Assembly: GCA_963818245.1 (NCBI GenBank)
Contig: CAWFSD010000003.1
Location: forward strand, 99,860 to 163,859
Direction of reading: 5' to 3'
DNA from: an uncultured Planctomycetota bacterium
GTDB taxonomy: Bacteria; Planctomycetota; UBA11346
Length of the DNA stretch: 64,000 nucleotides
The notes under the pieces were generated by a model that was not told the origin of the DNA, made no database searches, and worked only from the letters and a program-made list of their open reading frames with translations. Position 1 is the stretch's first letter. Each line of letters starts with the position of its first letter. The position numbers and the translations under genes were made by a program. Below, one piece after another: positions 2,639-63,491 of the stretch.

Positions 2639-3364
2639 TCAGCATCGGTCGGGGCGGGCGGGACTTGAGGAGGAAGTGCGAGCGCCACCACTCACCAGCG
2701 CGATGCCGCCCAGGACCAGGCCGGCTGCGACCACCAGCCCGCTGGTCAGCGGTTCGCCGAGGAAGGCCACCGCGCCCAGCGCCGTCAGCACCGGCACGCC
2801 GAGTTGGGCGATGGCCGCCTGGGTGACCTCCAGGCCCGCGATGGCGCGGTACCAGATGATGTAGCCGATCCCCGAGGTCAGCGCCCCGGACGCCACCGCC
2901 AGCACCGCCCCGGTGGCGTCCATGGCCAGCGTCGGCAGCAGCGCGGCGGCCAGCGCGGCGGCGAACGGCACGGCGCGGTGGAAGTTTCCCGCCGTCGCCG
3001 CGGCGGGGTCCGCCACCCCGCGCCCGCGGATCGAATAGATCCCCCAGGCGGCGCCCGCCACGGCCATCATGCACGAACTCGCCAGGGGCGGCGCCGCCAG
3101 TCCCGGCACGAACAGCAGCGCGAGCCCGGCCAGCGCCAGCACCAGGCCGAGCATCTGCAGCGGCCGCAGGCGCTCGCCGCGCGCGAGGCCGTAGCCGATC
3201 ATCGTCGCCTGCACCGCCCCGAACAGCAGCAGCGCGCCGGTGCCGGCGGGCAGGCCGACGTAGCCGAACGAGAAGCCGGCGGCGTAGGCGAACAGTGCGA
3301 GCGCCGAAGGCCAGCTCCCCGCCCGCGTCGTCGGCGCGCCCCGCCGGCGCAGCAGCAGCCACAA
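2639..3364 (-). CDS. DMT/EamA-family transporter (the N-terminus probably extends to about 3494 through an apparent frameshift near 3485)
   Basis: EamA-like TM repeats (GYIIWYRAIAGLE...). The same frame upstream encodes TFILTALAVCAFAGNSLLCRLAL without a start codon, while an ATG (MTARP) sits in an adjacent frame. Confidence 0.7.
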   Translation of the reverse strand: MWLLLRRRGAPTTRAGSWPSALALFAYAAGFSFGYVGLPAGTGALLLFGAVQATMIGYGLARGERLRPLQMLGLVLALAGLALLFVPGLAAPPLASSCMMAVAGAAWGIYSIRGRGVADPAAATAGNFHRAVPFAAALAAALLPTLAMDATGAVLAVASGALTSGIGYIIWYRAIAGLEVTQAAIAQLGVPVLTALGAVAFLGEPLTSGLVVAAGLVLGGIALVSGGARTSSSSPARPDRC

Positions 3365-3692
3365 CGCGAGCGCGCCGCTGAGCAGGCGCAGCGCGGTGAA
3401 CCCGGCCGGATCGCAGTGCCCGCCGCGCAGCGCCAGCCGGCACAGCAGCGAGTTCCCCGCGAACGCGCAGACGGCGAGCGCGGTGAGGATGAAGGTCCGG
3501 CCGCGCGGTCATCGCCTCGTTCCAGGCCGGCGGGGGCGGGAGTGCCACCGCGGCGGGTCCTGATTAGCGGGCTTCCACCGCCTGTCGAGGCGGGACCGCG
3601 CCACTCCTCCTGCCGGTGGGTCCGGCCCGACCGGCCGCGTGGCGCGTCAGTCCCGGCGCCACGCGTCGCGCCTCGGAACCCCGGCCGCAGCG

Positions 3693-5247
3693 TCAGCCCA
3701 TGCCGGCCACCGTGAGGATCACATAGAGCCCCGCGGCGAAGATGCCCGAACCGAGGATCACGCACACCGGCATGGTCAGCACCCACGCGAGCAGGATGCT
3801 GACCAGCGTGCGCCCCTGCAGGCCGGAGCCGTTCGCGGCCATGGTGCCGGCGATGCCCGAGGACAGCACGTGCGTGGTCGAGACCGGCAGGCCGAGCACG
3901 TCGGCGGTGGCGATGGTGGTCATCGCCACCAGCTCCGCCGAGGCGCCCTGCGCGTAGGTCAGGTGGGTCTTGCCGATCTTCTCGCCGACGGTGACGACGA
4001 TGCGCTTCCAGCCGATCATGGTGCCGAGGCCGAGGGCGAGCGCGACGGCGATCTTCACCCACAGCGGGATGAACTTGATCAGCGCGTCGAGGGCGCCCTT
4101 GTACGCGACCAGGTCGGTCTGCTCCTTGGCGTCGGTCAGGCGCTTCTGCTTGTTCAGCTTCGCGATCGACTCGTCGACCAGGTAGACGTCCTTGCGCAGG
4201 GCGCGGCGCTCGGCGTCGGTCAGCTGCGCGAGCCCGGTCTTCCCCGCCAACGCGGTGATGATGCGCTGGTTGACCGCGACCAGCGCGGGGTAGGTGGTGT
4301 CGCCGAACGTCCCGCTCGACTTGACGAACGCCGAGAGCGCGTCGGCCTGGTCGAGCGCGATCGGGGCGGGTCCCGCGCCGGGCACGACCAGGGCCGTCGG
4401 CGCGGTCGCCTCGGCGATGGAGGGCGAGGCCGGCGCCGCCGCCGCCGCGTGGGCCGAGAACAGCTCCTGCGCGTGCTGCGCGCGCGCCTGCAGCTGCTTG
4501 AGCGTCTCCACGTCGCTGTCCATGCGCAGCGCGTACACGCCCGGGATGATGCCGATCAGGATCAGCATGATCAGGCCCATGCCCTTCTGCCCGTCGTTGC
4601 TGCCGTGCGCGAAGCTGACGCCGGTGCAGGTCAGCACCAGCAGGCCGCGGATCCACAGCGGCGGCGGCGCGCTTGTCGAGCGGCGCCTGGAACAGCTCGG
4701 GACGGCGCACGGTCACCTTCAGCACCAGCAGCAGCAGGCCCGCCGCGCAGAAGCCGACCACCGGCGAGATCAGCAGCGCCATGAACACGTCCTTGGCCTT
4801 GCCCCAGTTGACGCCGTCGCCGAAGGCGGCGCCCTTGGCCATCAGCGAATTGACCATGCCCACGCCCATGATCGAGCCGATCAGGGTGTGCGAGCTGGAG
4901 GCCGGCAGGCCCAGCCACCACGTGCCCAGGTTCCACATGATCGCCGACAGCAGCAGCGCGAAGACCATGGTGAAGCCCGCCGACGAACCCGAGTTGATCA
5001 CCAGCTCGACCGGCAGCAGCGCGAGGATGCCGAACGCGACGGCGCCGGTCGACACCAGCACGCCGACCAGGTTCCACAGGCCCGACCACACCACCGCCGT
5101 CCACGGTCTCAGGGTGTTGGTGTAGATCACCGTCGCCACCGCGTTGGCGGTGTCGTGGAAGCCGTTGACGAACTCGAAGGCCAGGGCCAGGCCCACGGCC
5201 AGGACCAGGAACAGCAGCGAACCGGTGGTGAGGGAGGCGGCTTCCAT
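3693..5247 (-). CDS. pitA: inorganic phosphate transporter, PiT family. Apparent 1-bp frameshift near 4658-4668 splits it into an N-terminal part (4660-5247) and a C-terminal part (3693-4637).
   Basis: N-terminal part GFHDTANAVATVIYT and C-terminal part SFAHGSNDGQKGMGLI are the two PiT signature repeats. The junction ...PLDKRA/APPLWIRGLLVLTCTG requires one extra G/C in a GC run. SD AGGAGA precedes the ATG at 5247. Confidence 0.8.
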
Positions 5248-6901: not shown

Positions 6902-8044
6902 TCAGAAGCCGGGATTCTCCGCGGGTTTGGGCGCCTCGCCACCCTGCGGCGGCGCGCCGCCCGGCTGGCCGTTGGGTCCGCCTCCGGGACCTCCAGGCCC
7001 GCCCGGCCGCCCATTGCGCCGCCCGTCGCGCGGCGGCCCGCCGCCGCCCCACATGCCCGGGAAGCCGCGCGCGCCGAAGCGCGGGCGCAGCCAGCCGACC
7101 AGCGGCGAATCGCCGGCGATCTGCCAGTGGTCCTCGTGGCGGACGAGCTTGAGCGGCAGCGCCTCGGCCTTGCCGAAGGCGGTGAACGCGACGGTGACGT
7201 AGCGCGCGTCGTCCTCGCCGGGCACGGGCCGGGGCTCGCCGACCTTGGCCGAGTCCAGCACCTGGTCGAGCTGCAGGTCGTAGAGCGCGAGCAGCGCCTT
7301 GAGTCCGCCCAGGCTCTTGCCGAGGCGGCCCGCGGCGTCGTCGATGGTGATGGCGCCGAGCTCCGCGGCCGTGCCCACGCCCAGGCCCTTGATCAGCGCG
7401 GCGAACTGCGCGGTCGCCTTGGCCTGCTTGTCGGCGTCATCCAGCCCCGCGCCCTTGGACCACGCGGCGAAGCCGTCGAGCAGGTCGGCGATGGCCCTGG
7501 TCTGCTCGGCCTCCAGGCCGGTGGCGAGGATGTCGCCGACCGTGCCCGCGAGCAGGTTGGGGACCAGGAAGCCGGTGCGGCGCGGCTCGGCGTCGGCGGG
7601 CGCGCCCGGCTTGGCGGCCAGCCCCTGCAGGGTCGCGGCCAGGCCGTCGCCGCCGATGAACAGCGAGAAGATCTGCTGGAAGTGGCGGTCGGCCTCAGGC
7701 CCGCCGTTGCCGAGCGCGAGCAGGCGCTCGATGACGCCGTCGCGGAACGGGTTGTTCTGCCCGGCGAAGCGCTTCCAGGAGCTCTCGAGGTCGCTGCGCT
7801 GCGCCGGCGCGAGGCGCGCGAGCAGCCCGGTCGCGTCGTTGCCGCGCAGCGCCTTGATCAGCTCGGTCAGCGCGGCGTCGGCGCTCGGCGCGGCCGGCGC
7901 CGGCGGTACAGGCGCGACCGGCGCGACCACCGCGGGTGGCGCGGCCTCGGCGGCGGGCGCGAGCGCCGGGGCGATGGTGAGCGAACCGGTGACCAGCGCG
8001 GCACCGGCGAGGACGGCGAGGCCGCCGATCTTGAGCATGGCCAT
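6902..8044 (-). CDS. secreted hypothetical protein with a Gly/Pro-rich C-terminus
   Basis: Start MAMLKIGGLAVLAGAALVTGSLTIAPALA is a signal peptide, with GGAG 8 nt upstream. It lies in the same frame as the upstream sigma-factor C-terminus with no intervening stop. Confidence 0.5.
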   Translation of the reverse strand: MAMLKIGGLAVLAGAALVTGSLTIAPALAPAAEAAPPAVVAPVAPVPPAPAAPSADAALTELIKALRGNDATGLLARLAPAQRSDLESSWKRFAGQNNPFRDGVIERLLALGNGGPEADRHFQQIFSLFIGGDGLAATLQGLAAKPGAPADAEPRRTGFLVPNLLAGTVGDILATGLEAEQTRAIADLLDGFAAWSKGAGLDDADKQAKATAQFAALIKGLGVGTAAELGAITIDDAAGRLGKSLGGLKALLALYDLQLDQVLDSAKVGEPRPVPGEDDARYVTVAFTAFGKAEALPLKLVRHEDHWQIAGDSPLVGWLRPRFGARGFPGMWGGGGPPRDGRRNGRPGGPGGPGGGPNGQPGGAPPQGGEAPKPAENPGF

Positions 8045-8226
8045 GGTGGTGACTCCAGCGGAAGCGGCGGTGGCGGCGGCAGCGGCGGAAAGCGCGGCGG
8101 CGGGCGGGGCCATGCCCGCCGCGGCGGCGTGCGCGGTGGCGGCGGCGAAGGCGAGGGGCACCGGCGCGGCCGCGGCCTGGGCCTCGGCGGCGAGCAGCCC
8201 GGCGAGGGCGAGCGCACCGACGGCGA

Positions 8227-8783
8227 CGCCGCGGCGGCCGAGCACCTCGCGCAACTGCTCGCGCCCGCGGCTGAGCAGCGAGGCGAGGGTGCCGGGGTTG
8301 AGGTTCAGCAGGCGCGCGACCTCCTCCTGGGGATGGCCTTCGAGGTAGTGCAGGACCAGCGGCACGCGGTAGCGCTCGCTGAGCCGGTCGAGGGCGCCGT
8401 CGAGCTCCTCGCGGAGTTCGGTGCGCCGGCGCTCGTCGAGCGGCTCTTCGGGAAGGGTCATGGCGCTGGCCTCCTCATGGCGACGGCGGATGCGCCCGGC
8501 GTCGCGCTGGCGCGCGGCGACGTGGCGGGCGGTGCGGTGCAGCCAGCCGCCCAGGGTGGGATGGTCGGTGAGCGACCTCGGCCTTGTCGGCGAGGACCAG
8601 GAACACCGCCTGCGCGGCGTCCTCGGCGTCGGCCCCGGGTCCGAGGATGCGCCGGCAGGTCGCCAGCACCATCTGCCCGTGGCGGCGCAGCAGCTCGGCG
8701 AAGGCCGCCTCCCGCTCCACGACCGGCCCGCCGCCGCTGAAGGCGGTGAGCAGGGCGGCATCGCTGGTCGTCGATCGTACCAT
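8227..8783 (-). CDS. ECF-type sigma-70 factor. Apparent 1-bp frameshift near 8575, and no in-frame stop before the downstream gene.
   Basis: Region 2 (FAELLRRHGQMVLATCRRILG...AQAVFLVL) is in the frame of ORF 8475..8783. Region 2.4/4 (LTDHPTLGGWLHRTARHVAARQ...VPLVLHYLEGHPQEEVARLLNLNPGTLASLLSRGREQLREVL) is in the frame of ORF 6902..8899. Confidence 0.6.
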
Positions 8784-10173: not shown

Positions 10174-10412
10174 ACCTGGACCCTGGACCGTGGACACCTG
10201 GACCCTAGACCCTAGACCCTAGACATAGGGACGAGGTGATCAGTAGAGCCTCGACGCGGAACAGGGCATCGAAGATCGCGAAAGTGGATGCATTCCATCG
10301 GCGAAGTTTCAGACAACGCCATAAAAAGCAGGCAGTCCGCCTAGGGTCTAGGGTCTAGGGTCTCAGGGTCTAGGGTCTCAGGGTCTAGGGTCCAGGGTCC
10401 AGGGTCCAAGAA
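10174..10412. repeat. composite element: (GACCCTA)n array, about 105-bp lower-GC core, inverted (TAGGGTC)n array
   Basis: Direct reading: ctggaccctagaccctagaccctaga...core...ctagggtctagggtctagggtctcagggtctagggtc. Lies between the C45 and SnoaL genes. Confidence 0.9.
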
Positions 10413-12039: not shown

Positions 12040-12302
12040 GGCGAGGCGCGAGGCGCGAGGGACGAGGCGCGAGGCGCGAGGGACGAGGCGCGAGGCACGA
12101 GGCGCGAGGCGCGAGGCGCGAGGCGCGAGGCACGAGGCACCGCGCTCGGGTGCCTGGAATGTTTATAGACCCAAGCGCGAGGAGCCAGCCTTGGGCCATT
12201 GTGCCCGACGATGTCGCTTCACGTGTTCGGCCTATCCGCGCATGAACCGGATATCTAGGGTCTGGGTCCAGGGTCCAGGGACTCGGGGTCCGGGTCCAGG
12301 GA
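12040..12302. repeat. hybrid element: (GCGAGGC)n array, about 110-bp core, (TAGGGTC)-like array
   Basis: cgaggcgcgaggcgcgagggacgaggcg... about 14 units, then tctagggtctgggtccagggtccaggg. Lies between astA and the sigma-factor gene. Confidence 0.85.
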
Positions 12303-12634: not shown

Positions 12635-13484
12635 ATGAACGACGCGAGCACGCACAGCTCGATGCTGCGTCCGAGCGGGGCGAAGGCCGATCACGGCTGG
12701 CTCTACTACCAGAAGCCGGTGCGCAATTACCTGCGTGGCCTGGGCTGCGGGGACCAGGACGTCGATGACCTGACCCACGAGATCCTCATCAAGCTGCAGA
12801 CGTACATCGTCCTCAACTACAATCCCAGCCGGCCGTTCCGTCCGTATTTCAAGACCGCGATCCGGCACTTCTACTTCAGCCACCTGCGCGGGCGCGGCGG
12901 CCAGGGGGGCCGCCAGGTGGCGATGACGCCCGGCATCGCCGGGGCCGCCACCGCCGCCGAAGCCGAGGAGGATGAGAGCCAGGCCGGTGAGGACGTGCTC
13001 GCCGCCGGGCTGCTCGACTACGCCCGGCAGATGTACGACCACTTCGCCTCCGAGGCGGGATCCGCCCACGAGGTCGGCATCCAGAATGCTGCAGGCGTGG
13101 ATGCTCGGCGGGCTCAAGCAGGAGCAGCTCGCCACGCGCTGGAAGCTGACCGACCGCCAGGTGCGCACCCACATCGGCCGCGCCGCGGACGAGCTCGCGC
13201 GCTGGATGCAGGAGCGCCTGCACGCCGACGACCTGGCCGCCCTGGCCACCCTGGCCAAGGACAAGGGCGTGGTCCTGGATCTCGAGATGGCCGACATCCG
13301 CGGCCTGTTCAGCCACCTGTCGCGGCAGAAGCGCCTGCGTGCCCTGCTCATCCTCTCGCTCATCTACAAGCGCGAATCCGGATCCGCCGCCGGCACCCCG
13401 CTGACCGCCCTATCCGTGCTGGCTGTGCATGGATTGAGCGCTGGGCATCGCATTCGCCGGTTGAAGGACCGGCGGGTGGTCTAG
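12635..13484 (+). CDS. sigma-70 family RNA polymerase sigma factor (apparent frameshift near 13085)
   Basis: Region 2 (DVDDLTHEILIKLQTYIVLNYNPSRPFRPYFKTAIRHFYFSHLR) in frame 12392. Region 4 HTH (LKQEQLATRWKLTDRQVRTHIGRAADELARWMQERL) in frame 12972. The start could also be 12662. Confidence 0.6.
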
Positions 13485-17091: not shown

Positions 17092-17109
17092 GAGGGCGCT
17101 GCGCGCAGG

Positions 17110-17200
17110 CACAGGCGCGAGGCGCGAGGCGCGAGGCGCGACGGGCGAGTCACGAGTCACGACGCGCGAGGCACGAGACGCGACGCGCGAGGGACAGCCT
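17110..17200. repeat. (GCGAGGC)n-type heptamer array, degenerating
   Basis: gcgaggcgcgaggcgcgaggcgcgacgggcgagtcacgagtcacgacgcgcgaggcacgagacgcgacgcgcgaggg. Confidence 0.8.
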
Positions 17201-27280: not shown

Positions 27281-27552
27281 ACCTTGGACAGACCCTGGAC
27301 CCTGGACCCTGGGCCTGGGCCTGGGCCCTGGACCCTGGACCCTAGACCCTAGACCCTAGACCCTAGACCCTAGACCCTAGCCAGTCCGACCGGGTCGGAA
27401 GAGCGTCATCGCGAACGAGGGTCCGAATGCGTTCTTCGTGATGATTGAAAAGCCGCATGCGGTGATCCGGCCGACGACGCGCGCGGGCGACGCACCGGTA
27501 ACATGTCTAGGGTCTAGGGTCTAGGGTCTAGGGCCTCGCGCCTCGCGCCCCC
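27281..27552. repeat. composite element: (GACCCTR)n about 14 units, about 125-bp core, inverted (TCTAGGG)4 directly abutting (CCTCGCG)3
   Basis: Direct reading. Lies in the divergent region between the ABC-F gene and the nfu-like gene. Confidence 0.9.
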
Positions 27553-27593
27553 CGCCCGGGCGTGCAGAGCACGCCGGACTTCTCCCTGTCCCC

Positions 27594-28392
27594 ATGCGCC
27601 GGTTCTGGTACAAGTCCGACCGCAGGAGACCCGCCGTGTCCGCCCCCGTGCCCGCCCCCAGCGCAAAAGTCCTCGCCCGGCTCGCGGCCCTGCGCTTCGC
27701 CGGCGAGCTGACTGCGGCCGACGCGGCGGCGCAGGACTGCCGGCTGGTCGCGACCGAGCACGGGGCGCAGAGCGCGCCGGACCACATCGGCCTGACCCTG
27801 CTGCTCGACGCCGCGGGCATCGTGCGCGATGTGCGCTTCCGCTCGCCCGCGCAGGGCGCGCAGCTCGCCGCCTACGACGCGCTGGCCGAGCAGGCCGTCG
27901 GCCGCCTGCTGACCGACGCGGCGCGCCTGACGCCGCGCCAGATCGACGCGCTGCTGCGCGATGCCGGCGGCGGGCCGGTGCTCGACCTGGTCGCCACCAA
28001 CCACCCCGACGCCGACCACCCGTACTACGTGCTGCGCAAGGCCGCCGAGCGCGCGCTGAGCGTCGAACCCGAGACCCCGCCAGCCCGGTGCCAGCACCGC
28101 CGCTGCGCTGCCGTGGAGCGACATCGGCCTGTTCGAGAAGGTGCGGCGCATCGAGGGCGTGCTCGACACCCACGTGCGTCCGGCGCTGGCCAGCGACGGC
28201 GGCGGTCTGGACCTGGTCGACCTCAAGGACGACGACCTGTTCGTGCAGTACCACGGCGCCTGCGGCTCGTGCTCGTCCTCCATCGGCGGGACCCTGAACT
28301 TCATCCAGGACTCGCTGAACAACCACCTGCAGACCAGGCTGGCGGTGCGCGTCACCGAGGCGGGCGGCGGCGAGAGCATCGTCGGGCTCTAG
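27594..28392 (+). CDS. NifU/Nfu-like Fe-S cluster assembly protein (N-terminal domain of unknown function plus C-terminal Nfu domain; apparent frameshift near 28080)
   Basis: C-terminus (frame 28141) ...WSDIGLFEKVRRIEGVLDTHVRPALASDGGGLDLVDLKDDDLFVQYHGACGSCSSS carries the Nfu CxxC motif. The N-terminal domain is in frame 27594. Confidence 0.6.
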
Positions 28393-28709: not shown

Positions 28710-30351
28710 ATGAATCCTCCCGCCCCCAAGTCCCCTGCCACCGCTCTCGAGATCTACGACACCACGCTCCGCGACGGCTCGCAGGGCGAGGGCGTCAACC
28801 TCAGCCTGGCCGACAAGCTGGCGCTGACCGAGGCCCTCGACTGGCTGGGCGTCGCCTACATCGAAGGCGGCTGGCCCGGTTCGAACCCCAAGGACGAGGC
28901 CTACTTCGCCGAGGTCGGCAAGTTCACGCGCACGCACGCCAAGATCGCCGCCTTCGGCTCGACGCGCCGCGCCAAGTCGACCGCCGCGACCGATGACAAC
29001 CTCGGCAAGCTGGTCGCCTCCGGGGCCGACGTCATCACCATCTTCGGCAAGTCCTGGGACATGCAGGTGATCGAGGCCCTGCGCGTGCGCCTCGAGGACA
29101 ACCTCGAGATGATCGCCGACTCGGTCGCCTACCTGCGCCAGGCCACCGGCCGGCCGGTGTTCTACGACGCCGAGCACTTCTTCGACGGCTGGAAGGCCAA
29201 CCCCGGCTACGCCCTCGACACCGTCGCGGCCGCGTGGACGTCGGGCGCCAGCCGCCTGATCCTGTGCGACACCAACGGCGGCACCATGCCGCACGAGGTC
29301 ACCGCCGCGGTGGCCGCGGTGCGCGCGCGCCTGCCCGAGGCGGTCCTGGGCATCCACGTGCACAACGACGGCGGCCTGGCGGTGGCGAACACCCTGGCCG
29401 CGGTCGCGGCCGGCTGCACGCAGGTGCAGGGCACCATCAACGGCGTCGGCGAGCGCTGCGGCAACGTCGACCTGACCACGGTCATCGCCAACGCCGAGGT
29501 GAAGCTCGGCCACCGCTGCCTGCCCGCACGGCCACCTCCAGCGCCTGACCGAGCTCAGCCGCCTGGTGTGGGAGCGCATCAACCAGGTGGGCCCGGTGAA
29601 CCAGCCCTACGTCGGCCGCGCCGCCTTCGCCCACAAGGGCGGCGTGCACGTCAGCGCGGTGCAGCGCAACGCCCTGACCTACGAGCACGTGCCGCCCGAG
29701 ACCGTCGGCAACACCCGGCGCATCCTGATCAGCGAACTGGCCGGCCGCTCCAACGTCCAGGCCAAGCTCGCCAACCGCTACCCCAGCCTGAACGACCCGG
29801 GGGTCATCGCCAAGGTGCTGAACGAGGTCCAGGACCGCGAGAACGAGGGCTACAGCTACGAGGCCGCGGAGGCCAGCTTCGACCTGCTGGTGCGCCGCCA
29901 CGTCGGCGCCTGGCAGCCCGCGTTCGTCCTGCACCACTACCGCATCCACGGCCTCGGCACGCCAGGCGACGCCAAGGACCTGGTCGAGGCCACGGTCAAG
30001 CTCGACGTGCGCGGCCAGGTCCGGCTGTGCGTCGCCGAGGGCCACGGCCCGGTCGACGCGCTCAGCCACGCCCTGCGCGAGGCCCTGCTGCCGTCCTTCC
30101 CCCAGCTCCAGGAGCTGGCGCTGGTCGACTACAAGGTGCGCGTGGTCAACAGCGCCGACGGCACCGCCGCCAAGGTGCGCGTGTTCATCGAGCACCACAT
30201 CCACGGCCGTTCCTTCGGCACCGTCGGGGTGAGCGAGAACATCATCGAAGCGAGCTGGAAGGCGCTGGTCGAGGCCGTCGAGTACGGGCTGCTGAACGGC
30301 GGCGCGCCCGCCGAGGGCGGGAAGCCGGTCGTCGCGGTCGGGGCAGGGTAG
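28710..30351 (+). CDS. cimA: (R)-citramalate synthase / 2-isopropylmalate synthase family (apparent 1-bp frameshift near 29527)
   Basis: EIYDTTLRDGSQGEGVNLS, YIEGGWPGSNPKD, HVHNDGGLAVANTLAAV. The C-terminal LeuA-dimer-like domain is in frame 29566. The junction HRCLPA/GHLQRLTEL needs a 1-nt change. Confidence 0.8.
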
Positions 30352-30357
30352 GTGCTG

Positions 30358-30510
30358 GGCGCGAGGCGCGAGGCGCGAGGACCTGATTCGAGGTCTAATA
30401 AGTGAAACCCAGAACGGGCACAGTGGACCGGGTCCCAGGACCTCGTGCCTCGTGCCTCGTGCCTCGTGCCTCGTGCCTTGTGCCTCGTGCCTCGCGCCTC
30501 GCGCCTCCCC
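30358..30510. repeat. composite element: (GCGAGGC)3, about 60-bp lower-GC core, inverted (GCCTCGY)9
   Basis: gcgaggcgcgaggcgcgagg ... cctcgtgcctcgtgcctcgtgcctcgtgccttgtgcctcgtgcctcgcgcctcgcgcctc. Lies between cimA and the brx-like gene. Confidence 0.9.
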
Positions 30511-31059: not shown

Positions 31060-31936
31060 ATGGCCGACCGCACCCTCGCCTACGCCGAGAACGCCCCCGG
31101 CGGCTTCTTCGTCGACAGCACGTGCATCGACTGCGACACCTGCCGGCAGGTCGCGCCGGCGTCCTTCGTGGCGGTCGACGGGCACTCGGCGGTGGGCGTC
31201 CAGCCGCGCAGCGAGGACGAGGCGCGGGCGGCGGCGCGCGCGGTGCTGTGCTGCCCGACCAATTCCATCGGCAGCGACCAGGCGGCGCTGGTGCGCGCGG
31301 CGAGCGCGGACTTCCCCGCTGCCGATCACCGGCGACGTCGCCTACTGCGGCTTCGCGGCCGCCTCCTCGTTCGGTGCGTCGAGCTACTTCATCCGCCACG
31401 CCGACGGGAACTGGCTGATCGACGCGCCGCGCTGGACGCCGCAGCTGGTCCAGGCCATCGCGCGCGCCGGCGGCCTGAGCGGGATCTTCCTCACCCACCG
31501 CGACGACGTCGCCGACGCGGCGCGCTACGCGCAGCGCTTCGGCGCGCGCCGCGTGATCCACGCGCGCGACGCCGACGCCATGCCCGGCGCCGAGCAGGTG
31601 CTGACCGGCGAGGGCGAAACGACGCTCGCCGCCGACCTGGTCGCCATCCCCACGCCCGGCCACACCGCCGGCCACTGCGTCGCACTGTGGCGCGGCACCC
31701 ACCTGTTCAGCGGCGACCACCTGTGGTGGAGCCGGCGCCTGGGCGCGCTGAACGCGTCGCGCGAGGTGTGCTGGCACTCGTGGACCGAGCAGACCGCGTC
31801 GGTGCGGCGGCTCGCCGACCTCGCCTGCACCTGGGTGCTGCCGGGGCACGGCGAGCGGCGGCGAGATGACCGTGGCGGACTACCGCGCCGGGATGCGCGC
31901 CCTGGTGGAGCGCATGGAGCGCGCCCCGCTCGAGTC
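31060..31936 (+). CDS. ferredoxin-domain / MBL-fold metallo-hydrolase fusion protein (apparent frameshifts near 31320 and near 31860)
   Basis: N-terminus CIDCDTCRQVAP...CPTNSI is a ferredoxin cluster motif. Then the MBL frame: THRDDVADAARYAQ, PTPGHTAGH, LPGHGE. The probable C-terminus EMTVADYRAGMRALVERMERAPLESWP* is in a third frame. Confidence 0.6.
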
Positions 31937-31943
31937 CTGGCCG

Positions 31944-32362
31944 TGACGTTGCGTTCCAAACTCGCCAGGCTGGGAGCGCAGGGCATCGCGGATCTGGAAG
32001 AGCAGCAGCTCCATGCGATCCAGAAGGCCTGGCTCCAGGCGTTCTGCCAAGAGGTGAAGGCGCGACGCGGGCGATGGATCCACAACGGCTCCATGTGGCA
32101 CGCCTTCAGTTTCGACTACTGCGCGTGCCTGAGAGGCTTAAAGGCCTTGGCCGCGTATGAGAGGGTGCAGGGCGGGCCGTGCTACGCCTTCAACGAGGAC
32201 ATGGACACCGGTTGCGGATTCACCGCCACGGCGGGGCCGCCGGACCTGACGTCATCGAAGGACGACTGGTACGTGTGCGCCCAGGACATGGGCTGGACCA
32301 TGGTCTTCACCCATGAGCAGCCGGAGCTCGGACCGTTCTTCGCGAAGAATCCCCGGCTCTAG
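31944..32362 (+). CDS. small hypothetical protein, lower GC than its surroundings
   Basis: In frame with the tail of ORF 30722..32362. Follows the MBL gene stop. TTG/GTG start near 31944. Cys-containing (FDYCACLRGL, GPCYAF, TGCGF). Confidence 0.35.
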
Positions 32363-38993: not shown

Positions 38994-39409
38994 GGCCAGC
39001 TCCACCGCCAAGCGTTCCTGGGCCGCGGCCGCTGGCGCCCGCGAGCGGGGCCCCAGCAGCCGGTCGATGGCGGCCACCGCGGTGGCCAGGCGTCGCGTGG
39101 TCACCGCTCAGGCGCACCACCGGCCGGTCGTGGGCGGCGAGCACGGCCTGGCAGCGCGCGGCGAACTCCGCGCGGCGGTGCGGCATGTCGCGCTGGCCGT
39201 CGGCGACCCACGGGGTCCCACTCCTGGCCGTTCGTCGGCAGGCCGAGGGCCCGTAGGCGCCCGGCCGCGGCGTCGAGATCGTCTTGCGTCCCGCACCACC
39301 ACCACAGCAGCGGAGCGGTGACCAGCGGCAGCCCGAAGGCGAGCGCCGCCAGCAGCCACCAGCCGCGCCGGCTGCAGCGCTGGGGCGGCGGTGGGCGGCG
39401 GCGCCTCGT

Positions 39410-40453
39410 TCACGGCGCCGCGGCCAGCTCCCGCGCCAGCGCGTGGTGCTTGGCGAACGCCGCCGCCACCTTCCCGCTCGTGAGCGCCGCGCGCGCGGCC
39501 GCGACACCCTGGCCGTCGCCGAGGATCGGCCGGCCGTGCCAGCAGTCGAGCGCGGCGCCGGCATTGACGCACACCAGGTCGAGCAGCGGGCCGCGCTCCT
39601 CGCCGGCGAGCAGGCGCCGGAACAGGTGCTTGTTGACCGGCGCGTCGCCGCCGGGCAGCTGGTCGTGGGTCAGGCCTGGCTGGTGGAAGTGCTCGGCGAT
39701 GCGGTGGTGGACGCGGCCGTCGTGCACCTCCCACAGGTGGCTGGGGCCGGAGATCGACAGCTCGTCGATGCCGGGGTGGCCGAGCACCACCACCGCGCGC
39801 TCGCTGCCCAGGCGCACCAGCGCCTCGGCGACCACGCGCGCGACCTGCTCATCGCTGACGCCGACGATCTGGCGGCGCGGGCGGAAGGGGTTGGCGAGCG
39901 GGCCGGCGAGGTTGAAGACGGTGCGCCGCACGTGCTGCGCGGCGAGCTTGCGCGCGGGCGCGACCGCGGCGACCGCCGGGTGCACCTGGCGCGCGAACAG
40001 GAAGCACACGCCGCTCTCGGCGTGCAGGCGCGCGAGGCGCTCGGGCGGCAGCTGGTAGGGCACCTCGAGCGCGTCGAGCAGGTCGAAGCCGCCGTTCGGC
40101 CGCGCGCTGCCGCGGTTGCCGTGCTTGGCCACCGGCACGCCCAGGGCGGCGAGCACGAAGGCCGCGGTGGTCGAGACGTTGAAGCGCGTCAGCCCGCTGC
40201 CGCCGGTGCCGCACAGGTCCATGCACGCCGGGCTGGCCGGGACCTGCGCGCGCGCCAGCAGGTTCCACACCACCGCCGCGAGCTCGACCGCGGTCTCGCC
40301 GCGGCGCGTCCAGGCGACCAGCAGGTCGGCGCCCTCCGCGGCCGCGAGTTCGCCGCTGATCAGCAGGTCGACGAGCGCGCCGGTCTCGGCCTCGCTCATC
40401 CCCGACGGGTTGAGGACCTGGCGCTGCATGGCGGTGAAGGCAGGGCTGGGCAT
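39410..40453 (-). CDS. trpD: anthranilate phosphoribosyltransferase family (TrpD/glycosyltransferase family 3)
   Basis: DLCGTGGSGLTRFNVSTTAAFVLAALGVPVAKHGNRG. Alternative start at 40429. Confidence 0.8.
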   Translation of the reverse strand: MPSPAFTAMQRQVLNPSGMSEAETGALVDLLISGELAAAEGADLLVAWTRRGETAVELAAVVWNLLARAQVPASPACMDLCGTGGSGLTRFNVSTTAAFVLAALGVPVAKHGNRGSARPNGGFDLLDALEVPYQLPPERLARLHAESGVCFLFARQVHPAVAAVAPARKLAAQHVRRTVFNLAGPLANPFRPRRQIVGVSDEQVARVVAEALVRLGSERAVVVLGHPGIDELSISGPSHLWEVHDGRVHHRIAEHFHQPGLTHDQLPGGDAPVNKHLFRRLLAGEERGPLLDLVCVNAGAALDCWHGRPILGDGQGVAAARAALTSGKVAAAFAKHHALARELAAAP

Positions 40454-43214: not shown

Positions 43215-43249
43215 GGGGGCGGGATGTTCGGGGTGCGCCGGCGCTGTGC

Positions 43250-43400
43250 TAGACCTTAGATTTGAGACCCTAGACCCTAGACCCTAGACCCTAGACCCTA
43301 GACCCTAGACCCTAGGAAACCGGCTGCGCCTCAGGAGTCGTGCAGCGTCGCGTGCGTTGGCCGCGAGGAGCCGGGCGGAGGGCTGTCGCCAGGGTCCAGG
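43250..43400. repeat. composite element: (GACCCTA)9, about 65-bp core, degenerate inverted (CAGGGTC)2
   Basis: gagaccctagaccctagaccctagaccctagaccctagaccctagaccctagg ... ccagggtccagggtctg. Lies between hrpB and aroG. Confidence 0.85.
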
Positions 43401-43472: not shown

Positions 43473-44508
<1,036 letters not shown>

Positions 44509-44537
<29 letters not shown>

Positions 44538-45390
44538 CGGCCTCGTCCCCCGGCTCCTCCGCGGCCATCACCTCCACGCCGTCCTCGAGGCGCAGGAACC
44601 ACGGCGTCATCAGCCGGTTCCGGGGCTGACGCAGGTGGGGATGCGGCGACGTGGGGGGAATGAGGTCGTCGACGTCCTTCGCATCGACGCGCAGGAAGGC
44701 CCAGCGCAGGGGTGGTACCCGCGTTCCGTCGCGGCGCGCGGTCTCCAGCCAGTGGGGCATGCCTCCACGGCAATGCGCGCACGTGCTCCGGTAGCAGCAG
44801 ATCACCCAGCGTCCGTGGTGCCAGGCCTCCGGCAGGGCGGCGATGAGGTCCAGGTCGGCGCTGGTCGTTGGGGCGCGGGCTCCGGTCGTGGGCCTGCTGG
44901 CGGTCGCTACCGCCAGCCAGCCCACCAGCATGGCCGACACCAGGGCCGCCAGCAGCGCGCCGTGACGGGGATGAGAACGATGGGCCGGCCGGGGCGGCGG
45001 CCGCAGCACCCAGAAGGCGGCCGCGTAGAGCACGTCGGCCGCTGCGGCGGCCCAGGGTGGCACCGTCAGCTCACCGAAGCACCCGCAACTCGTAGCGCCG
45101 CTGATGGCCGCTGCCGTGGCGAGCAGGGCGAAGGCGCAGAAGGTGGCCCTGGCCGCCACCCACACGTGAACCGACCAGGAGGCCAGCAGCAACCCGACAG
45201 CCAGCGTGGTCTCCCACGTCAGGGCAGCGACGCCCACACTGGTCGGCAGGGCCCATCCCGCGAAGACCGGCTGCCCGGTGTGCAGCCAGACGCCGGTTTT
45301 GGCCACTGCGGCCGCGAGCAGCATGCCAGCCGCGGTGATTGCGAGGAGCGCCGGCAGGAGGTGGGAGATGGGAGGGTAGAGGGTGCGCAT
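44509..45390 (-). CDS. MauE/DoxX-like membrane domain fused to a thioredoxin-like CxxC domain
   Basis: TM helices with the SCGCFG motif (MauE-like). C-terminus has CCYRSTCAHCRGGMPHW, a redoxin CxxC. Convergent 29-bp overlap with aroG. Confidence 0.6.
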
Positions 45391-45493
45391 CGCCTCGAAT
45401 CCTGCACCAGGGATGAGCGGTGCCGATCCGGACCCGGCCGCGGCTGGTGGGTTTGATCGACATCCAGAAGACGGGAGCGCAGAGGCGAGGGCT

Positions 45494-46560
45494 TCAGAAG
45501 CCCGATGGTGCGGCCACCGCGGGCGCCGCTTCCGAGGCGCGCCCGGAGGCGGGTCCGACCGTAGCGTAGAAGGGAATGCGCAGGATGCCGCCATCCGTGA
45601 AGGTGACATCGAAGTGCCCCGGAGCGGGGGCGATGGGGCTGGCGCCGGTGAAGCGGGTCTCGAGGTGCTGCGTCCCATCCTCCTCGAGCAGCTGGCACGT
45701 CGCCCGTTCGGGATCGCTGGAGACGATCCGCACCACCTGGGCTCGCGCCGTACCGGAACGGGCCCGCAATTGCAGGGTCTTGTGCGCTTCGCCATCCACC
45801 GGCACGACCCCGAAGAGCGCTCCAGCCGGTTTCGCCTCCCATGGTCCTGGCACGGTCCAGCGGACCGGGGCACTCGGCTGGTGTGGTCCCAGGTGCGCCC
45901 CGCCTCGCTGAAGGAGACAACCAGGCGCGCGGTCATGACTCCGCTGACGCGGGTCGGCTTCGCGGTGAACGCGATGTCCAGGAATCCGCGTCACGGCTGC
46001 CACCGCGGCGACCAGCAGAATCCTCGCCGCCGACCAGCGCGGCAGTGATCGCATCGAAGTGGCCGGGGTGGGACCCCGTCGCAGGATGACCGGACGCGGC
46101 CTCGCCGGATGCCGAGCCGGTCGATCACCCAGGTCGATGAGCCTGCCACGTGGCCACAGCAGGTGCTCGCTGACGTGGGCCTCCAACTCGCAGTGGACGT
46201 GCGCCTCGTGGCCGTCCTCGTCGCCGATGATGGTGAATTCGCTGCCGATCTCGCCCGCCAACTCACCGGCATAGAAGGTGACTTGAGCACGCGCTCCTGG
46301 CCCGCGCCGATGACCTCGTCCGGCAAAGGGTCGACGCGCACGCAACTGCAGGTGCGGCGGACCCGATGGGTCGGAAGCTGTGTCCGGAGGGGATGGTGAA
46401 CGGAACGTCGAGTGCCCGGTACTCCCCCGGGTAGAGCGCCATGACGGGCGGGTGGATGTCGACCAGGGCGCCGATTCCGCCGCGGCGGTGAGGTGGCCGG
46501 CGCACATGACCAGCAGAACGATGGTGCGCAGACGGCAGTGCTCGCGGCGAGGGCGATCGC
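45494..46560 (-). pseudogene. secreted-protein gene disrupted by multiple frame changes
   Basis: The signal peptide (MTPSREPGRDRPRREHCRLRTIVLLVMCAGHLTAAA) is in one frame. Plausible segments (GIGALVDIHPPVMALYPGEYRALDVPFTIPSG; VTFYAGELAGEIGSEFTIIGDEDGHEAHVHCELEAH; ...ATCQLLEEDGTQHLETRFTGA...HFDVTFTDGGILRIPFYATVGP) are scattered over all three minus-strand frames. Confidence 0.35.
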
Positions 46561-46581
46561 GGCCGGGTTCACGGGATGGTG

Positions 46582-47565
46582 TCATTTGCCGCCCTCCCCG
46601 TTGGCGTCCTTCTGCAGGGGCACCAACCCGCCATTCACGGCGAAATCGTTGATGGTGCGCACGTGGGTGGGATCGATCTCGAATTCGCTGTCGTCGATCG
46701 GGATGCCGAGGTGCACAGCGGTCACCGTCTGCGTGCTTACGGCGACCTCCTTGCCCCATTCCGTGGTCACCGCCTGGGACGGCAGGGGATAGGGTCCGCT
46801 GCCATCGGCCGCCGTCACCAGGCGGTACGTGATGCGCTCCCGCAGCATCGGCGCCTGGTCCACCCAGCCCCAGTGGATCTCAGCGATGAGCCGGACCCCG
46901 CCGAACTCCGGAAATGGGCGGATCAGGTAGCGCGCCTCGGCGTTCTGCAGCGCCTCGACGAACTCGTTCTCACCGACCTTCTTGGCGCTGGTCTGGGGAA
47001 CGTGCAGGATGGTGGTGCCGTCGGCACCGTGTTCGACGGTGGCGAGCGAGGTGGTGAGGTGCGCCTTCACCCAGTCGGGGTCCAGCAGCTGGTCCCATCC
47101 CAGGGTCAGCGAGTTCGTCGCGTGGTGGTCGTGGTAGGCGAGGAACGAGAAGAGTTGGAGCGACAGCGGGCACGGCATGAAGCCAGAGTAGGGGATTTCC
47201 GAGTAGACGGGGTATCCCGGACCCTTGTGCATGAGGAAGAGGTCGGTCTTGCCCTCGAGGTATTGCCAGCCGTCGTTGTTGGCGACGTAGACCAGGGAAT
47301 CGACCTTATGGCCGGGATTCGTGCCCTCCCAGCGGATCACCCGGAATTTCGCGCCCTTCATGTGGTAGCTGATGCCATAGCGCGTCCCCGCTGCGACATC
47401 CTCCGCCATGTCCTCCTCGAAACTCGCGCTGGAGATGTGGGCATAGATCCTGAGCTGATCGGCGAAGATGGCCGGGTCGGCGGGCTCCTGGGCGCCCGGC
47501 AGTTCCAGGCGGGCGGTGGTGCTCAGCAGCACCAGCAGGATCACCGTCGAGGCGCGTCGTATCAT
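46582..47565 (-). CDS. secreted hypothetical protein (lower-GC gene)
   Basis: Signal peptide MIRRASTVILLVLLSTTARLELPGA. 327 aa with coding-like composition. Confidence 0.6.
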   Translation of the reverse strand: MIRRASTVILLVLLSTTARLELPGAQEPADPAIFADQLRIYAHISSASFEEDMAEDVAAGTRYGISYHMKGAKFRVIRWEGTNPGHKVDSLVYVANNDGWQYLEGKTDLFLMHKGPGYPVYSEIPYSGFMPCPLSLQLFSFLAYHDHHATNSLTLGWDQLLDPDWVKAHLTTSLATVEHGADGTTILHVPQTSAKKVGENEFVEALQNAEARYLIRPFPEFGGVRLIAEIHWGWVDQAPMLRERITYRLVTAADGSGPYPLPSQAVTTEWGKEVAVSTQTVTAVHLGIPIDDSEFEIDPTHVRTINDFAVNGGLVPLQKDANGEGGK

Positions 47566-47682
47566 GGCCGTGGTCCTGGTCGGTTAGGGAATCATGGTGA
47601 TGGGCTGTCGGGGTTCAGGCGGTCCGTGGTGCGCACGCACCACGGACACGCGAACTCACCGGTTATGCGTGGTTTCCATCCT

Positions 47683-48189
47683 TCAGCCCTTGGGCAGGAT
47701 GGGCGGAGGCGTCGGAACCCCGTAGACCGGGGCGCAGTCATTGTCCATGAAGTGGTAGCCGCACGGCTGCGGGATCATGGGCTTCTCGTAGGGATCGGGC
47801 TGGCCGGTCGTCGGATCGATGTAGTAGGGGTTGGGGATCATGGGCACGACCCATGGGGCGGTGGCATTCAGGCGCTTTTTGATGCCGCCGCACTTGCGCG
47901 GGTTGGCGGTGTACTTGCCGGCTGTGCCCGGGGGGTAGGACGGCCGGATCTGCGGGCTTTCATTGGCGTCGACCGCGTTGACGAACATGACCGCCGGCGG
48001 CTGCATGCCGCGGACCGGCTGCACGTACTGGGCTGCGCAGATGTAGTTGCCATCGTAGAGCCCGTTGTCCGGGTTCTTCATGGTGAAGTTCATGCAGTAG
48101 GACTTGTCCCAGCAGACGTTGGCCGCTGAAAGGGAGATGGAGAACAGCGTGAGCAGTGCTCCGGCGCTGGCGATCCTGGTGATGGGCAT
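47683..48189 (-). CDS. small secreted Cys/Pro-rich hypothetical protein
   Basis: Start MPITRIASAGALLTLFSISLSAANVCW is a signal peptide. GGAAGG 9 nt upstream. 8 Cys. Confidence 0.5.
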   Translation of the reverse strand: MPITRIASAGALLTLFSISLSAANVCWDKSYCMNFTMKNPDNGLYDGNYICAAQYVQPVRGMQPPAVMFVNAVDANESPQIRPSYPPGTAGKYTANPRKCGGIKKRLNATAPWVVPMIPNPYYIDPTTGQPDPYEKPMIPQPCGYHFMDNDCAPVYGVPTPPPILPKG

Positions 48190-48306
48190 GGGAAACCTTC
48201 CGTGGTGATGGCCGGAGGCCGATGAGCGCTCGCGTGAGCGCACGGGATGCCGCATCCGCCGCCGGTGGTCACCGGCTATGGGAACGGATGGGCAAGGAGG
48301 ACAATC

Positions 48307-48329
48307 AGTATTCGCATTCTGCGAATACT
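48307..48329. promoter_or_regulatory. palindromic operator-like site AGTATTCGCA-ttc-TGCGAATACT, about 120 bp upstream of the secreted small-protein gene
   Basis: 10-bp perfect arms. AT-rich in a GC-rich genome. Confidence 0.45.
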
Positions 48330-48540
48330 CCGATGGTGGAGTATGGCGATGCGATGTCAACCTGGCAGGGCGAAGATGGTCCGATCAGGCGCGCAGAGGA
48401 TCGTGGCCGGGTGCGCGGAAGCGGCGCCATGGGGACACGCGACGTCCAGCACAGGCTGCGCATCCAGCGAACCGGCGGCAGCGACGCAGCGCGACCCGTG
48501 ACGAGACGCGTGGTTACGAGAGCCATAGTGAAAACGTCCA

Positions 48541-48561
48541 GTATTCGCCTGGTGCGAATAC
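48541..48561. promoter_or_regulatory. second copy of the GTATTCGC-N5-GCGAATAC dyad
   Basis: Same half-site as 48307-48329, 210 bp away. Confidence 0.45.
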
Positions 48562-48681
48562 GTGAATGTCGCCTCCAGCCGGCTGCTGTCAATGTGGCGG
48601 CAAAACCTCCAGGCGCGGACCTGGTTTCCGCACCGGTCGCGCCGGGGAAGGGTCAGCTCCGGAGCGGGTCCCCAGCCACGC

Positions 48682-51158: not shown

Positions 51159-51200
51159 CCTAAAGGCCGTGGGCGCGGGTCCAGCGGCGCCTCCGTTGCA

Positions 51201-51400
51201 GACCCTGGATCCTAGACCCTAGACCCTAGACCCTAGACCCTAGACCCTAGATCGATGCCCAGGGTCTCGGGTCATTGAAAAGGAACAAACTGCGCCTTGG
51301 TCCGGTATCTAGGGTCTCGGGTCTAGGGTCTAGGGTCTACCGTCGATCTAGGGTCTCGGGTCTCGGGTCTCGCGGTCTGCTCCCAGGGTCCCCATTGCCC
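51201..51400. repeat. composite element: (CCTAGAC)7, about 58-bp core, inverted (TAGGGTC/TCGGGTC)n
   Basis: Direct reading. Lies between the small gene 50916..51158 and the HIT gene. Confidence 0.9.
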
Positions 51401-52180: not shown

Positions 52181-52314
52181 AACCGCCAAGACGCCAAGGC
52201 GCCAAGGCTCGAGGGAGGGGGGTCGCGAAAAGTGCGGACGGGCGCCACGGGGGTGGGCCGCCGGCGGTCCCGCCCGGGGTCATGCCTTCCGTGGCGCCGT
52301 GGCGTCTTGGCGGT
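52181..52314. repeat. MITE-like element of the same family: 27-bp arm aaccgccaagacgccaaggcgccaagg, about 80-bp core, inverted arm ccgtggcgccgtggcgtcttggcggtt
   Basis: The arms are reverse complements with 2 mismatches. Lies between mazG-like and lpxL-like. Confidence 0.85.
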
Positions 52315-52339
52315 TGAAACCCTTGTTCGCAGCCAGCCG

Positions 52340-53242
52340 ATGAGCGGCCTGAAGATCGCCATCCTCGACCGCCTGCTCGCCTGCGCGCGCATCGTCCCCC
52401 CGGGCTTCGCCTGGTGGCTGGGCGGCGTGCTCGGCGACGCCTTCGGGCGGCTGCCCATGCGCGACCAGGGCCGCGCCCGCGCCCACCTCGCGCGCGCCTT
52501 CCCGGAGCGCGGCCACCACTGGCTGGAGCGCACGGCGCGCGCCAGCTTCCGCCACGTCGGGCGCATGGCGCTGGCCACCCTGGCCACCCTGCACCGCGAC
52601 GCGCGCGGGCTGCGCCGCGGCGTGCTGGTGGAGGGCGTGGAGAACCTCCGCGGGCTGCTCGCCGCGACGCGGCGCGGCGAGGGCACGGTGTGCTTCACCG
52701 GCCACTTCGGCAACTGGGAGCTGTTCGCGCGCCTGGGCGGGGCGATGATCCCGCTCACCGTGGTCGGTCGGCGCCTGCGCAACCCGCTCGCCGACCACCT
52801 GGTGCAGGGCGCGCGCACGCGCAGCGGGGCGCGCCTGCTCTACCAGGACAGCCCGATCCGCGCCTTCGTGCACGAACTGCGCGCCGGGCGCATGCTCGCC
52901 GTGCTCATCGACCAGGATATCCCCCGTCTGCCCGGCGCCTTCGTACCATGGTTCGGCATCCCCGCGCACACTCCGACCGGACCCGCCGGCCTCGCCCTGC
53001 TGACCGGCGCCGCGGTGCAGCCGGCCTTCCTCTACCGCCGTGATGGCCGCTGGGTCCTGCACGCCGGTCCGCGCCGGCGCTTCCCGCGCACCGGCGACCG
53101 CGACGCAGACGCCGCCGCGATCACCGCCTGGGCCACCGCCTACGAGGAGGCGCTGGTGCGGCGCCACCCGGAGCAATGGGTGTGGTGGCACCGGCGCTGG
53201 CACACGCGGCCGGCGGAGAAGGAGGCGGTGCCCCGAGCGTGA
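52340..53242 (+). CDS. lipid A biosynthesis lauroyl/myristoyl acyltransferase family (LpxL/HtrB-type)
   Basis: HFGNWE is the H(X)4(D/E) acyltransferase motif. Typical LpxL length and layout. Confidence 0.75.
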   Translation: MSGLKIAILDRLLACARIVPPGFAWWLGGVLGDAFGRLPMRDQGRARAHLARAFPERGHHWLERTARASFRHVGRMALATLATLHRDARGLRRGVLVEGVENLRGLLAATRRGEGTVCFTGHFGNWELFARLGGAMIPLTVVGRRLRNPLADHLVQGARTRSGARLLYQDSPIRAFVHELRAGRMLAVLIDQDIPRLPGAFVPWFGIPAHTPTGPAGLALLTGAAVQPAFLYRRDGRWVLHAGPRRRFPRTGDRDADAAAITAWATAYEEALVRRHPEQWVWWHRRWHTRPAEKEAVPRA

Positions 53243-62449: not shown

Positions 62450-62911
62450 TTATTTGCCGCCGTTGTCCTTCCAGCCCAGGTCGACCTTCTGCTCGGTGAA
62501 GGTCTCGGGGCCGACCTGGTACTTCTCGCCTTCGACCACCGGGTAGGTGATGGCGCCGGCCTTGACCTGCTTGCCACCGGGCACGACCTCGGTGATCACG
62601 AAGCTCTTCAGGCGCTCGCCCTTGCCGGGCATGCCGTTCAGGTACTTCTGGAAGCGCCAGTCGGCCTGGGGATCGCGCTCCTTGCGGATGTCGATGTACT
62701 CGCCGCCATCGGTGTGGTGCTCCTTCCAGCGCTTCTCGTTCGGCTCGACGGTGAAGCCGGCCAGGGTCGAGGCCATGTTGGTCCAGGCGTTGTCGTCCAG
62801 GCCGCGGCGGGTGTTGCCGGCCGCGTCCTTCTCACCGACGCCATAGGGGCTCATGGCCAGGAAGTAGAAGGGCAGGATCAGGGCCAGGCCGATGATCAGG
62901 GTCAGGGTCAT
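62450..62911 (-). CDS. membrane-anchored protein: TM helix plus periplasmic domain. Probably the C-terminal part of the upstream HTH protein after a frame change.
   Basis: MTLTLIIGLALILPFYFLAM TM helix. The same frame continues upstream without a start. It overlaps ORF 62832..63491 by 80 nt. Confidence 0.45.
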   Translation of the reverse strand: MTLTLIIGLALILPFYFLAMSPYGVGEKDAAGNTRRGLDDNAWTNMASTLAGFTVEPNEKRWKEHHTDGGEYIDIRKERDPQADWRFQKYLNGMPGKGERLKSFVITEVVPGGKQVKAGAITYPVVEGEKYQVGPETFTEQKVDLGWKDNGGK

Positions 62912-63491
62912 CAGGGTCGGCCAGAATCCAGTGCACGCGCGGGATCTCGGCCTTGGCGCGGCTGCTGCGCACGCTGCGGCGCGACGAGCTGCCGACGTTG
63001 CTGTTGCTGCTGCCGGCCTCGATCTGCGAGGTCTGGAAGTCGATGGGCGCGGTGGTGGCGCCGACCTGGGTCTCCTCGACCGCGGTCATGACCGCGGTGT
63101 TGGAGTCGGTGAAGTTCAGGCTGGCCACGCCGGGCGAGGCCTTGGCCACGTCCTTGGCGTGCGGATCGTCGAAGCTCACCACTTCGAGCTCGTCGCCGAA
63201 GGTGATCGACTCGGACGCGTTGGTGTCCTTGCGCGGCTGGACGATGGTCTCGCTGGCGTCGTCCACGACCTTGCCGAGATCGATCGACAGCTCGTCGCTG
63301 TCGCCGGTCAGCACGATGGTGCCTTCGTCCCCTTCGGCGCGCGCGAGCTTCTCGACGTCGTCGCGGTTGAGCTGCAGCTTGCCGCCGACGCGCTGGGCGC
63401 GGATGGCGCCGCCGTTGATATGGTTGTTGAGCGCGGCGTCGTCGCAGCCCAGCAGGGCCTTTGCTTCCTTGGCGTCGATCATGTCAGCCAT
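62832..63491 (-). CDS. HTH_17 (excisionase-type helix-turn-helix) domain protein with an acidic/Ser-rich linker
   Basis: MIDAKEAKALLGCDDAALNNHINGGAIRAQRVGGKLQLNRDDVEKLA matches the HTH_17 pattern. GGAG 7 nt upstream. The C-terminus runs into the tandem repeat ccctgatgaccctgaccctgatcat. Confidence 0.5.
   Translation of the reverse strand: MADMIDAKEAKALLGCDDAALNNHINGGAIRAQRVGGKLQLNRDDVEKLARAEGDEGTIVLTGDSDELSIDLGKVVDDASETIVQPRKDTNASESITFGDELEVVSFDDPHAKDVAKASPGVASLNFTDSNTAVMTAVEETQVGATTAPIDFQTSQIEAGSSNSNVGSSSRRSVRSSRAKAEIPRVHWILADPDDPDPDHRPGPDPALLLPGHEPLWRR

Follow-up and report, generated by a model that had tools for sequence, protein, structure and literature searches.

Single-base frame disruptions in a Planctomycetota metagenome contig very probably reflect assembly consensus errors

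Decaying genomes with many pseudogenes are known from Mycobacterium leprae and from recent host-restricted symbionts, and Mira, Ochman and Moran reportedly found in 2001 that bacterial mutation is deletion-biased. In programmed frameshifting of the prfB type, a +1 shift is required to read through an otherwise functional gene. Long-read assemblies are said to have a frameshift problem of their own that stems from residual indels, a point attributed to Watson and Warr in 2019, and such artefacts weigh most heavily on bins of low coverage. In long-read MAGs below ~40x coverage, indels that cause frameshifts are documented and leave gene calls fragmented (PMC9262707), and the proovframe preprint likewise concerns frameshift artefacts that arise from long-read assembly indels (10.1101/2021.08.23.457338).

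Here we consider a 64,000-nt stretch of DNA (the window) that belongs to a public 184,323-bp Planctomycetota MAG contig (~72% GC; NCBI, ENA). GC content is 70-75% all along the window, the nearest named relatives are Planctomycetota MAGs, and the 184-kb contig is the sole record for most of the window proteins. Ten intact window ORFs are identical to proteins on record for this contig. A sequence-only reading had listed frame switches at nine loci; all nine are real by Pfam domain splits, Viterbi segmentation and orthologue alignment, although some positions had to be refined. The three genes in the first 2.6 kb are all intact. From sequence comparison, we judge that the frame disruptions are very probably single-base errors in the assembly consensus that the organism itself does not carry, and that the affected genes should be read as intact. 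A single-base indel artefact is a known kind of problem and nothing new biologically.

How does the window compare with the described systems? It resembles long-read indel artefacts in that conserved genes are split or chimeric but otherwise intact, and in that the disruptions vanish in independent or more accurate assemblies. The classic errors differ in being homopolymer-length changes and mostly deletions, whereas the isolated errors here are insertions in runs of one or two bases, and the window adds one 600-bp patch of dense indels. The likeness to decaying bacterial genomes lies in the many conserved genes that are frameshifted, about one per 6-7 kb. As in prfB-type frameshifting, a +1 shift would be required to read through each gene. 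However, the window has no conserved shift site, nor an in-frame stop with an upstream Shine-Dalgarno-like element; the shifts affect unrelated genes and an intergenic site, and they are missing from orthologues.

The affected features are as follows, with the extra base in square brackets where its context is given.

2639..3512, minus strand: EamA-family transporter gene (Pfam EamA); extra base at 3509, gene strand ATG[A]CC
3693..5247, minus strand: pitA, a PHO4 phosphate transporter gene; extra base at ~4665 within cgcGCCGCCGCCgct (gene-strand context GCCGCCGCC), exact base ambiguous
6902..8780, minus strand: ECF sigma factor gene with a ~430-aa conserved C-terminal extension; extra base at 8580
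12635..13484, plus strand: sigma-70-like factor gene; extra A at 13086, CAGA[A]TG
27594..28392, plus strand: NifU_N-NifU (Nfu-like) gene; extra A at 28082, CGCC[A]GCC
28710..30351, plus strand: cimA / 2-isopropylmalate-synthase-like gene; extra A at 29528, CCGC[A]CGG
31060..31946, plus strand: ferredoxin-metallo-beta-lactamase (Fd-MBL) gene; extra G at 31318, CCCC[G]CTG, and extra G at 31863, GGC[G]AGA
45494..46585, minus strand: secreted-protein gene; 11 single-base indels (7 losses, 4 gains) at 45870-46466
53317, non-coding: extra G, GGAAT[G]TCG, between the lipid A acyltransferase gene and hemE
62450..63491, minus strand: HTH_17 plus transmembrane (HTH_17-TM) protein gene; extra base at 62926, gene strand GGA[T]TCTGG

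Sequences from several sources were compared with the window. L081 and L169 are contigs of JGI metagenome 3300048998, with ~94-97% nucleotide identity to the window, and L083, L084, L168 and L176 come from MAG GCA_038213805.1, with 82-93% identity. At 98.8-99.9% identity stand L087 and L179, which are independently assembled Logan contigs of run ERR11523670, and L086, which is ENA ERZ25039523 contig_59368.

At this GC content, stop codons are too rare for plain ORF lists to be informative. Frame plots based on GC3 only flagged sites, but strands and gene boundaries were inseparable in them, and a codon-usage Viterbi segmentation over six frames was used instead. We checked the frame switches in three independent ways, which were concordant: Pfam domains by frame, the Viterbi segmentation, and orthologue alignment. 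Exact lesion sites were taken from DNA alignment to intact orthologues, and the pitA site from tblastn. The Viterbi scan of the whole window recovered every mid-gene site, with same-strand frame changes that involve no stop or gap at 4657/8, 8571/2, 13085/6, 28074/5, 29524/5, 31316/7, 31854/5 and 62915/6, and it also gave a patchwork at 45.56-46.58 kb. Frame changes at 15346, 50922, 51838, 54569 and 59336 are not lesions but places where neighboring genes overlap in the ordinary way; the boundary pairs behind these false positives are sigma/anti-sigma, HIT/MazG, small ORF/M3 peptidase and hemE/hemY-like. The scan also gave blips at 3301-3344, 6907-7022 and 44963-45001, which amount to noise or to length differences that keep the frame.

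Leaving aside the secreted-protein gene and the intergenic base, nine isolated sites in eight genes each carry one extra window base. Close relatives (85-97% nucleotide identity) have an intact orthologue for seven of the eight genes, pitA being the exception, with uninterrupted homologues at the amino acid level. When one base per site is deleted, a full-length, stop-free ORF with the expected stop results in all eight genes. The corrected lengths match the orthologue exactly or within 5 aa, barring start-call differences (265 versus 251 aa for the Nfu-like protein and 290 versus 281 aa for the EamA protein).

The EamA shift sits at the second codon, immediately 3' of the ATG. L084 reads ATG-CCG at this point and encodes an intact protein of 281 aa, and the window without 3509 gives an ORF that begins MPRGRTF and has no internal stop. 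A disruption of the EamA N terminus had been thought probable at about 3485, and the comparison with L084 bears it out at 3509 instead. In pitA, the PHO4 profile matches over positions 1-146 in one frame and over 199-350 in the next (Pfam). By tblastn, homologue residues 189 and 190 map to window positions 4666 and 4664, in frames -2 and -3, and removal of 4665 yields an intact ORF of 517 aa. A metagenome scan gave pitA homologues with ~60% amino acid identity at best, and all 80 of 80 metagenome loci are uninterrupted across the junction. At ~60% identity, the relatives place the pitA junction at the protein level, but they do not allow the inserted base to be called in the DNA.

Both sigma factor genes are intact in L084. 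In the ECF sigma gene, Sigma70_r2 (positions 1-37) and Sigma70_r4_2 lie in different frames (Pfam); L084 lacks the extra base and encodes 623 aa, the corrected window ORF has 625 aa, and dN/dS downstream of the shift is 0.20. This gene had been thought to lack a stop before the next gene, but the long C-terminal extension is conserved, and the sigma factor with its extension (623 aa in GCA_038213805.1) is one fused protein from which no stop is missing. The extension contains a predicted membrane-spanning Ala-rich stretch, a large domain and a Gly/Pro-rich tail. The sigma-70-like gene of L084 is likewise without the extra base and encodes 287 aa, compared with 282 aa for the corrected window ORF, and dN/dS downstream is 0.12.

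Domains are split between frames in three further genes. NifU_N and NifU of the Nfu-like gene fall in different window frames, whereas they share one frame in L001, L002 and L005; L083 is without the extra base and encodes 251 aa. The cimA product has HMGL-like in one frame and HCS_D2 plus LeuA_dimer in another. The 97%-identical L081 lacks the extra base and encodes 546 aa, which is also the length of the corrected window ORF; dN/dS is 0.03 upstream and 0.23 downstream of the shift, and cimA orthologues are uninterrupted at 80 of 80 genome loci. In the Fd-MBL gene, Fer4_13 and Lactamase_B lie in different frames, and L081, L082 and L176 are all without both extra bases. The corrected Fd-MBL ORF has no internal stop, and its final stop overlaps the start of the next gene. 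That gene, a DUF4275 gene at 31943-32362 on the plus strand, follows by a GTGA stop/start overlap and is missing in L176. On the uncorrected sequence it is in frame with the middle of the MBL region, so that a gene caller may fuse the two.

The HTH_17-TM gene lacks the extra base in L168, and the corrected window protein has 346 aa. Its lesion had been placed inside a ccctga repeat, but 62926 lies ~15 nt upstream of that repeat. In the public protein collection, the 184-kb contig contributes this protein as two broken pieces, one of 219 aa and one of 134 aa. An intact 346-aa protein occurs on four other contigs, one of them 99.1% identical to the corrected window protein. Since the broken pieces are found in public gene calls, the lesions belong to the deposited record and were not introduced later. 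Five of six guessed frameshifted ORFs, and one guessed C-terminal fragment, were absent from public protein records; other gene-caller boundaries are the probable reason, so this result is uninformative.

Are these single bases present in the organism? The strongest evidence for error is, at the level of sequence, contradiction by contigs of what appears to be the same strain. L179 aligned to window 52228-53347 with 0 mismatches over 1,120 nt, and the sole difference is the G at 53317, which is missing from L179. This base is intergenic; insertions of one type therefore occur in coding and non-coding DNA alike. The secreted-protein gene had been described as having several frame switches, and comparison with L086 and L087 resolves these into 11 single-base indels. 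The 11 lie within 597 bp, an indel density of ~1.8%, and at 11 of 11 positions L086, which is from a different assembly, has the reading of L087 and not that of the window. Over ~3 kb (45702-48690), the window differs from L087 by 2 substitutions and 11 single-base indels. Between the window and L169, by contrast, 2.5 kb of the M3 peptidase gene contain 84 substitutions and not a single indel. Indel-to-substitution ratios of 11:2 and 1:0 are hence not those of natural divergence. The L087 protein is uninterrupted, and a hybrid of L087 with the window 3' end restores an intact 364-aa ORF that resembles the 357-aa protein of L169. Altogether, 12 of the 21 window indels (the 11 of the cluster and 53317) are missing from same-strain contigs, with 0-2 substitutions over 1.1-3 kb. 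Same-strain contigs were also sought for the nine isolated coding sites; none was found, and the comparisons at those sites are with relatives only. At any single isolated coding site, the extra base could thus, formally, still be a very recent real mutation.

Genuine recent pseudogenisation would mean relaxed selection and real frameshifts in ~10 of ~55 genes. The frameshifts are indeed present in the deposited public contig, and one neighbour gene downstream of trpD, homologous to a 415-aa protein, has been cut short, so some real gene loss is possible. Yet 12 indels are missing from same-strain contigs, and the 11 indels to 2 substitutions of the cluster are unlike natural divergence. The affected genes also lack the mixed lesions of decaying genomes: we found no nonsense codons, IS elements or truncations in them, and codon bias stays strong past each shift. 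Purifying selection appears to persist, with dN/dS of 0.12-0.37 downstream of each shift and values within 0.03-0.50 in the corrected ORFs. The genes hit include some with housekeeping roles, for example cimA and the Nfu-like gene. Finally, the isolated events are all insertions, opposite to the deletion bias of natural mutation and of decaying genomes, and the same-strain sequences are free of the lesions that they cover. Taking these points together, we regard pseudogenisation as very unlikely.

The direction and context of the isolated changes are informative in their own right. All nine are +1 insertions (two-sided binomial p ~0.004), and this uniform direction, together with the like insertion in intergenic DNA, points to a process bias and not to selection. 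The sequence-only reading had explained the sites by a single-base gain or loss in a short run, typical of homopolymer indels. We find gains in nine of nine cases; counting the inserted base, run length is 1 at six sites, which are thus in no run, and 2 at the other three. None of the nine isolated sites lies within a run of three or more identical bases, despite the 2,229 such runs in the window, and no common sequence or methylation-like motif was seen in the contexts of the insertion sites. Of that reading's leaning towards errors over pseudogenisation, the choice of errors is upheld by the same-strain contigs, the orthologues and the restored ORFs (eight of eight genes with isolated sites, and the secreted-protein gene by way of the L087 hybrid), but the homopolymer mechanism is not. 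Nor is the density of isolated sites uniform across the window: they are concentrated in two stretches, 3.5-13 kb and 28-32 kb (p ~0.02 by gap-variance simulation).

Could a co-existing strain have contributed real alleles to the consensus, and could these account for some of the isolated insertions? In favor of such heterogeneity of the population, the locus at 44.5-48.6 kb is strain-variable and is duplicated by L086 at 98.75% identity. However, a frameshifted allele would have to be in the majority, or be chosen, each time in nine different conserved genes. Moreover, L086 has indels of its own at 45695 and 45699, where two bases are missing; at both positions the window retains the frame that matches L169, unlike L086. 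The assembly of L086 is therefore error-prone as well, and its private indels point to errors in both contigs. We consider population heterogeneity a very unlikely source of the insertions.

The region itself is an island at 44500-48650 that contains the MauE-like gene, the secreted-protein gene, a 327-aa protein gene and others. L176 lacks it, and there the DAHP synthase gene adjoins the M3 peptidase gene. In L169 the island is ~65% identical and its flanks are 94-97% identical. L086 is a 4.2-kb alternative contig that duplicates the island and aligns to window 44478-48714. Its further private changes include extra bases at 46393 and 46333, so that the secreted-protein gene is broken in L086 too, at other places.

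A reading in which part of the nine isolated +1 insertions are true alleles that have become fixed is, in our estimate from these alignments, highly improbable. Under it, a free-living lineage of the Planctomycetota would be carrying or decoding +1 frameshifts in housekeeping genes, among them cimA, the Nfu-like gene, pitA and two sigma factor genes. Programmed +1 recoding, by which ribosomal frameshifting or transcriptional slippage would let the genes be expressed despite the extra base, accords with the same +1 direction of all nine isolated events, but it is scarcely credible given that no site has a common motif, slippery run or in-frame stop, that no orthologue has the extra base and that the same type of insertion is found in intergenic DNA.

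Consensus errors remain the reading that we favor. The source would be uncorrected errors in the consensus of a metagenome assembly, probably a long-read assembly and probably of a low-coverage organism. Isolated single-base insertions occur about every 5-7 kb, whether the DNA is coding or not, and the indel rate at 45.87-46.47 kb is near that of raw reads. In the most economical account, reads from the island were probably split between the window contig and L086, which would have left the consensus poorly polished; both the polishing failure and the sequencing platform are steps that we infer. The spatial clustering of the isolated sites would fit only if local differences in coverage or quality are assumed. 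An exclusive set of insertions outside homopolymers is unlike the classic nanopore/454 signature of homopolymer deletions.

The name "contig_59368" in the sibling ENA assembly is in (meta)Flye style. The Logan assembly of ERR11523670 covers the strain patchily, with 2 of ~17 window proteins tested. Contig naming, this patchy representation and the private indels of L086 are consistent with a low-coverage long-read assembly, though they do not prove it. A full-text literature search for ERR11523670 and ERZ25039523 returned no mention of either.

The consequences for annotation follow from base composition. With so few stops at 72% GC, a shifted frame can run on for hundreds of codons before it closes, and gene callers therefore emit chimeric or truncated proteins. 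Frameshifts that bring no early stop are in turn under-detected by simple ORF or length checks. At least nine window genes have wrong annotations, either as fragments or as chimeric proteins whose tails are out of frame; an example is a 682-aa "pitA" ORF of which ~490 residues are junk. Both pieces of the HTH_17-TM protein already circulate in public protein collections. The 21 indels need to be corrected before novelty, gene loss or domain architecture is claimed from the 184-kb contig.

One multi-frame patch, at 39.05-39.42 kb, was considered as a single-base error and rejected; comparison with relatives shows a truncated gene, and a Pfam search of the patch gave no match. In L176 and L177, a 415-aa protein is encoded at the place of window 39170-39409 (minus strand), which lies downstream of trpD (39410-40453). 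In the window, only ~70 N-terminal codons of this gene are left; 2 nt are deleted at 39380, and the gene body is short of ~860 bp. The truncated gene may be a true remnant, or the assembly may have collapsed here.

Tandem arrays of 7-nt units were also observed in intergenic DNA, at 10175-10408, 27291-27560, 30346-30510, 51200-51390, 12041-12138, 17101-17192 and 43249-43315. The units are AGACCCT/CTAGGGT and GCGAGGC/CCTCGCG, and many of the arrays are paired in inverted orientation with 30-150 nt between them, so that long hairpins could fold. In L081, the 97% relative, the matching intergenic position also carries arrays, built from a different heptamer, GGCGCTA.
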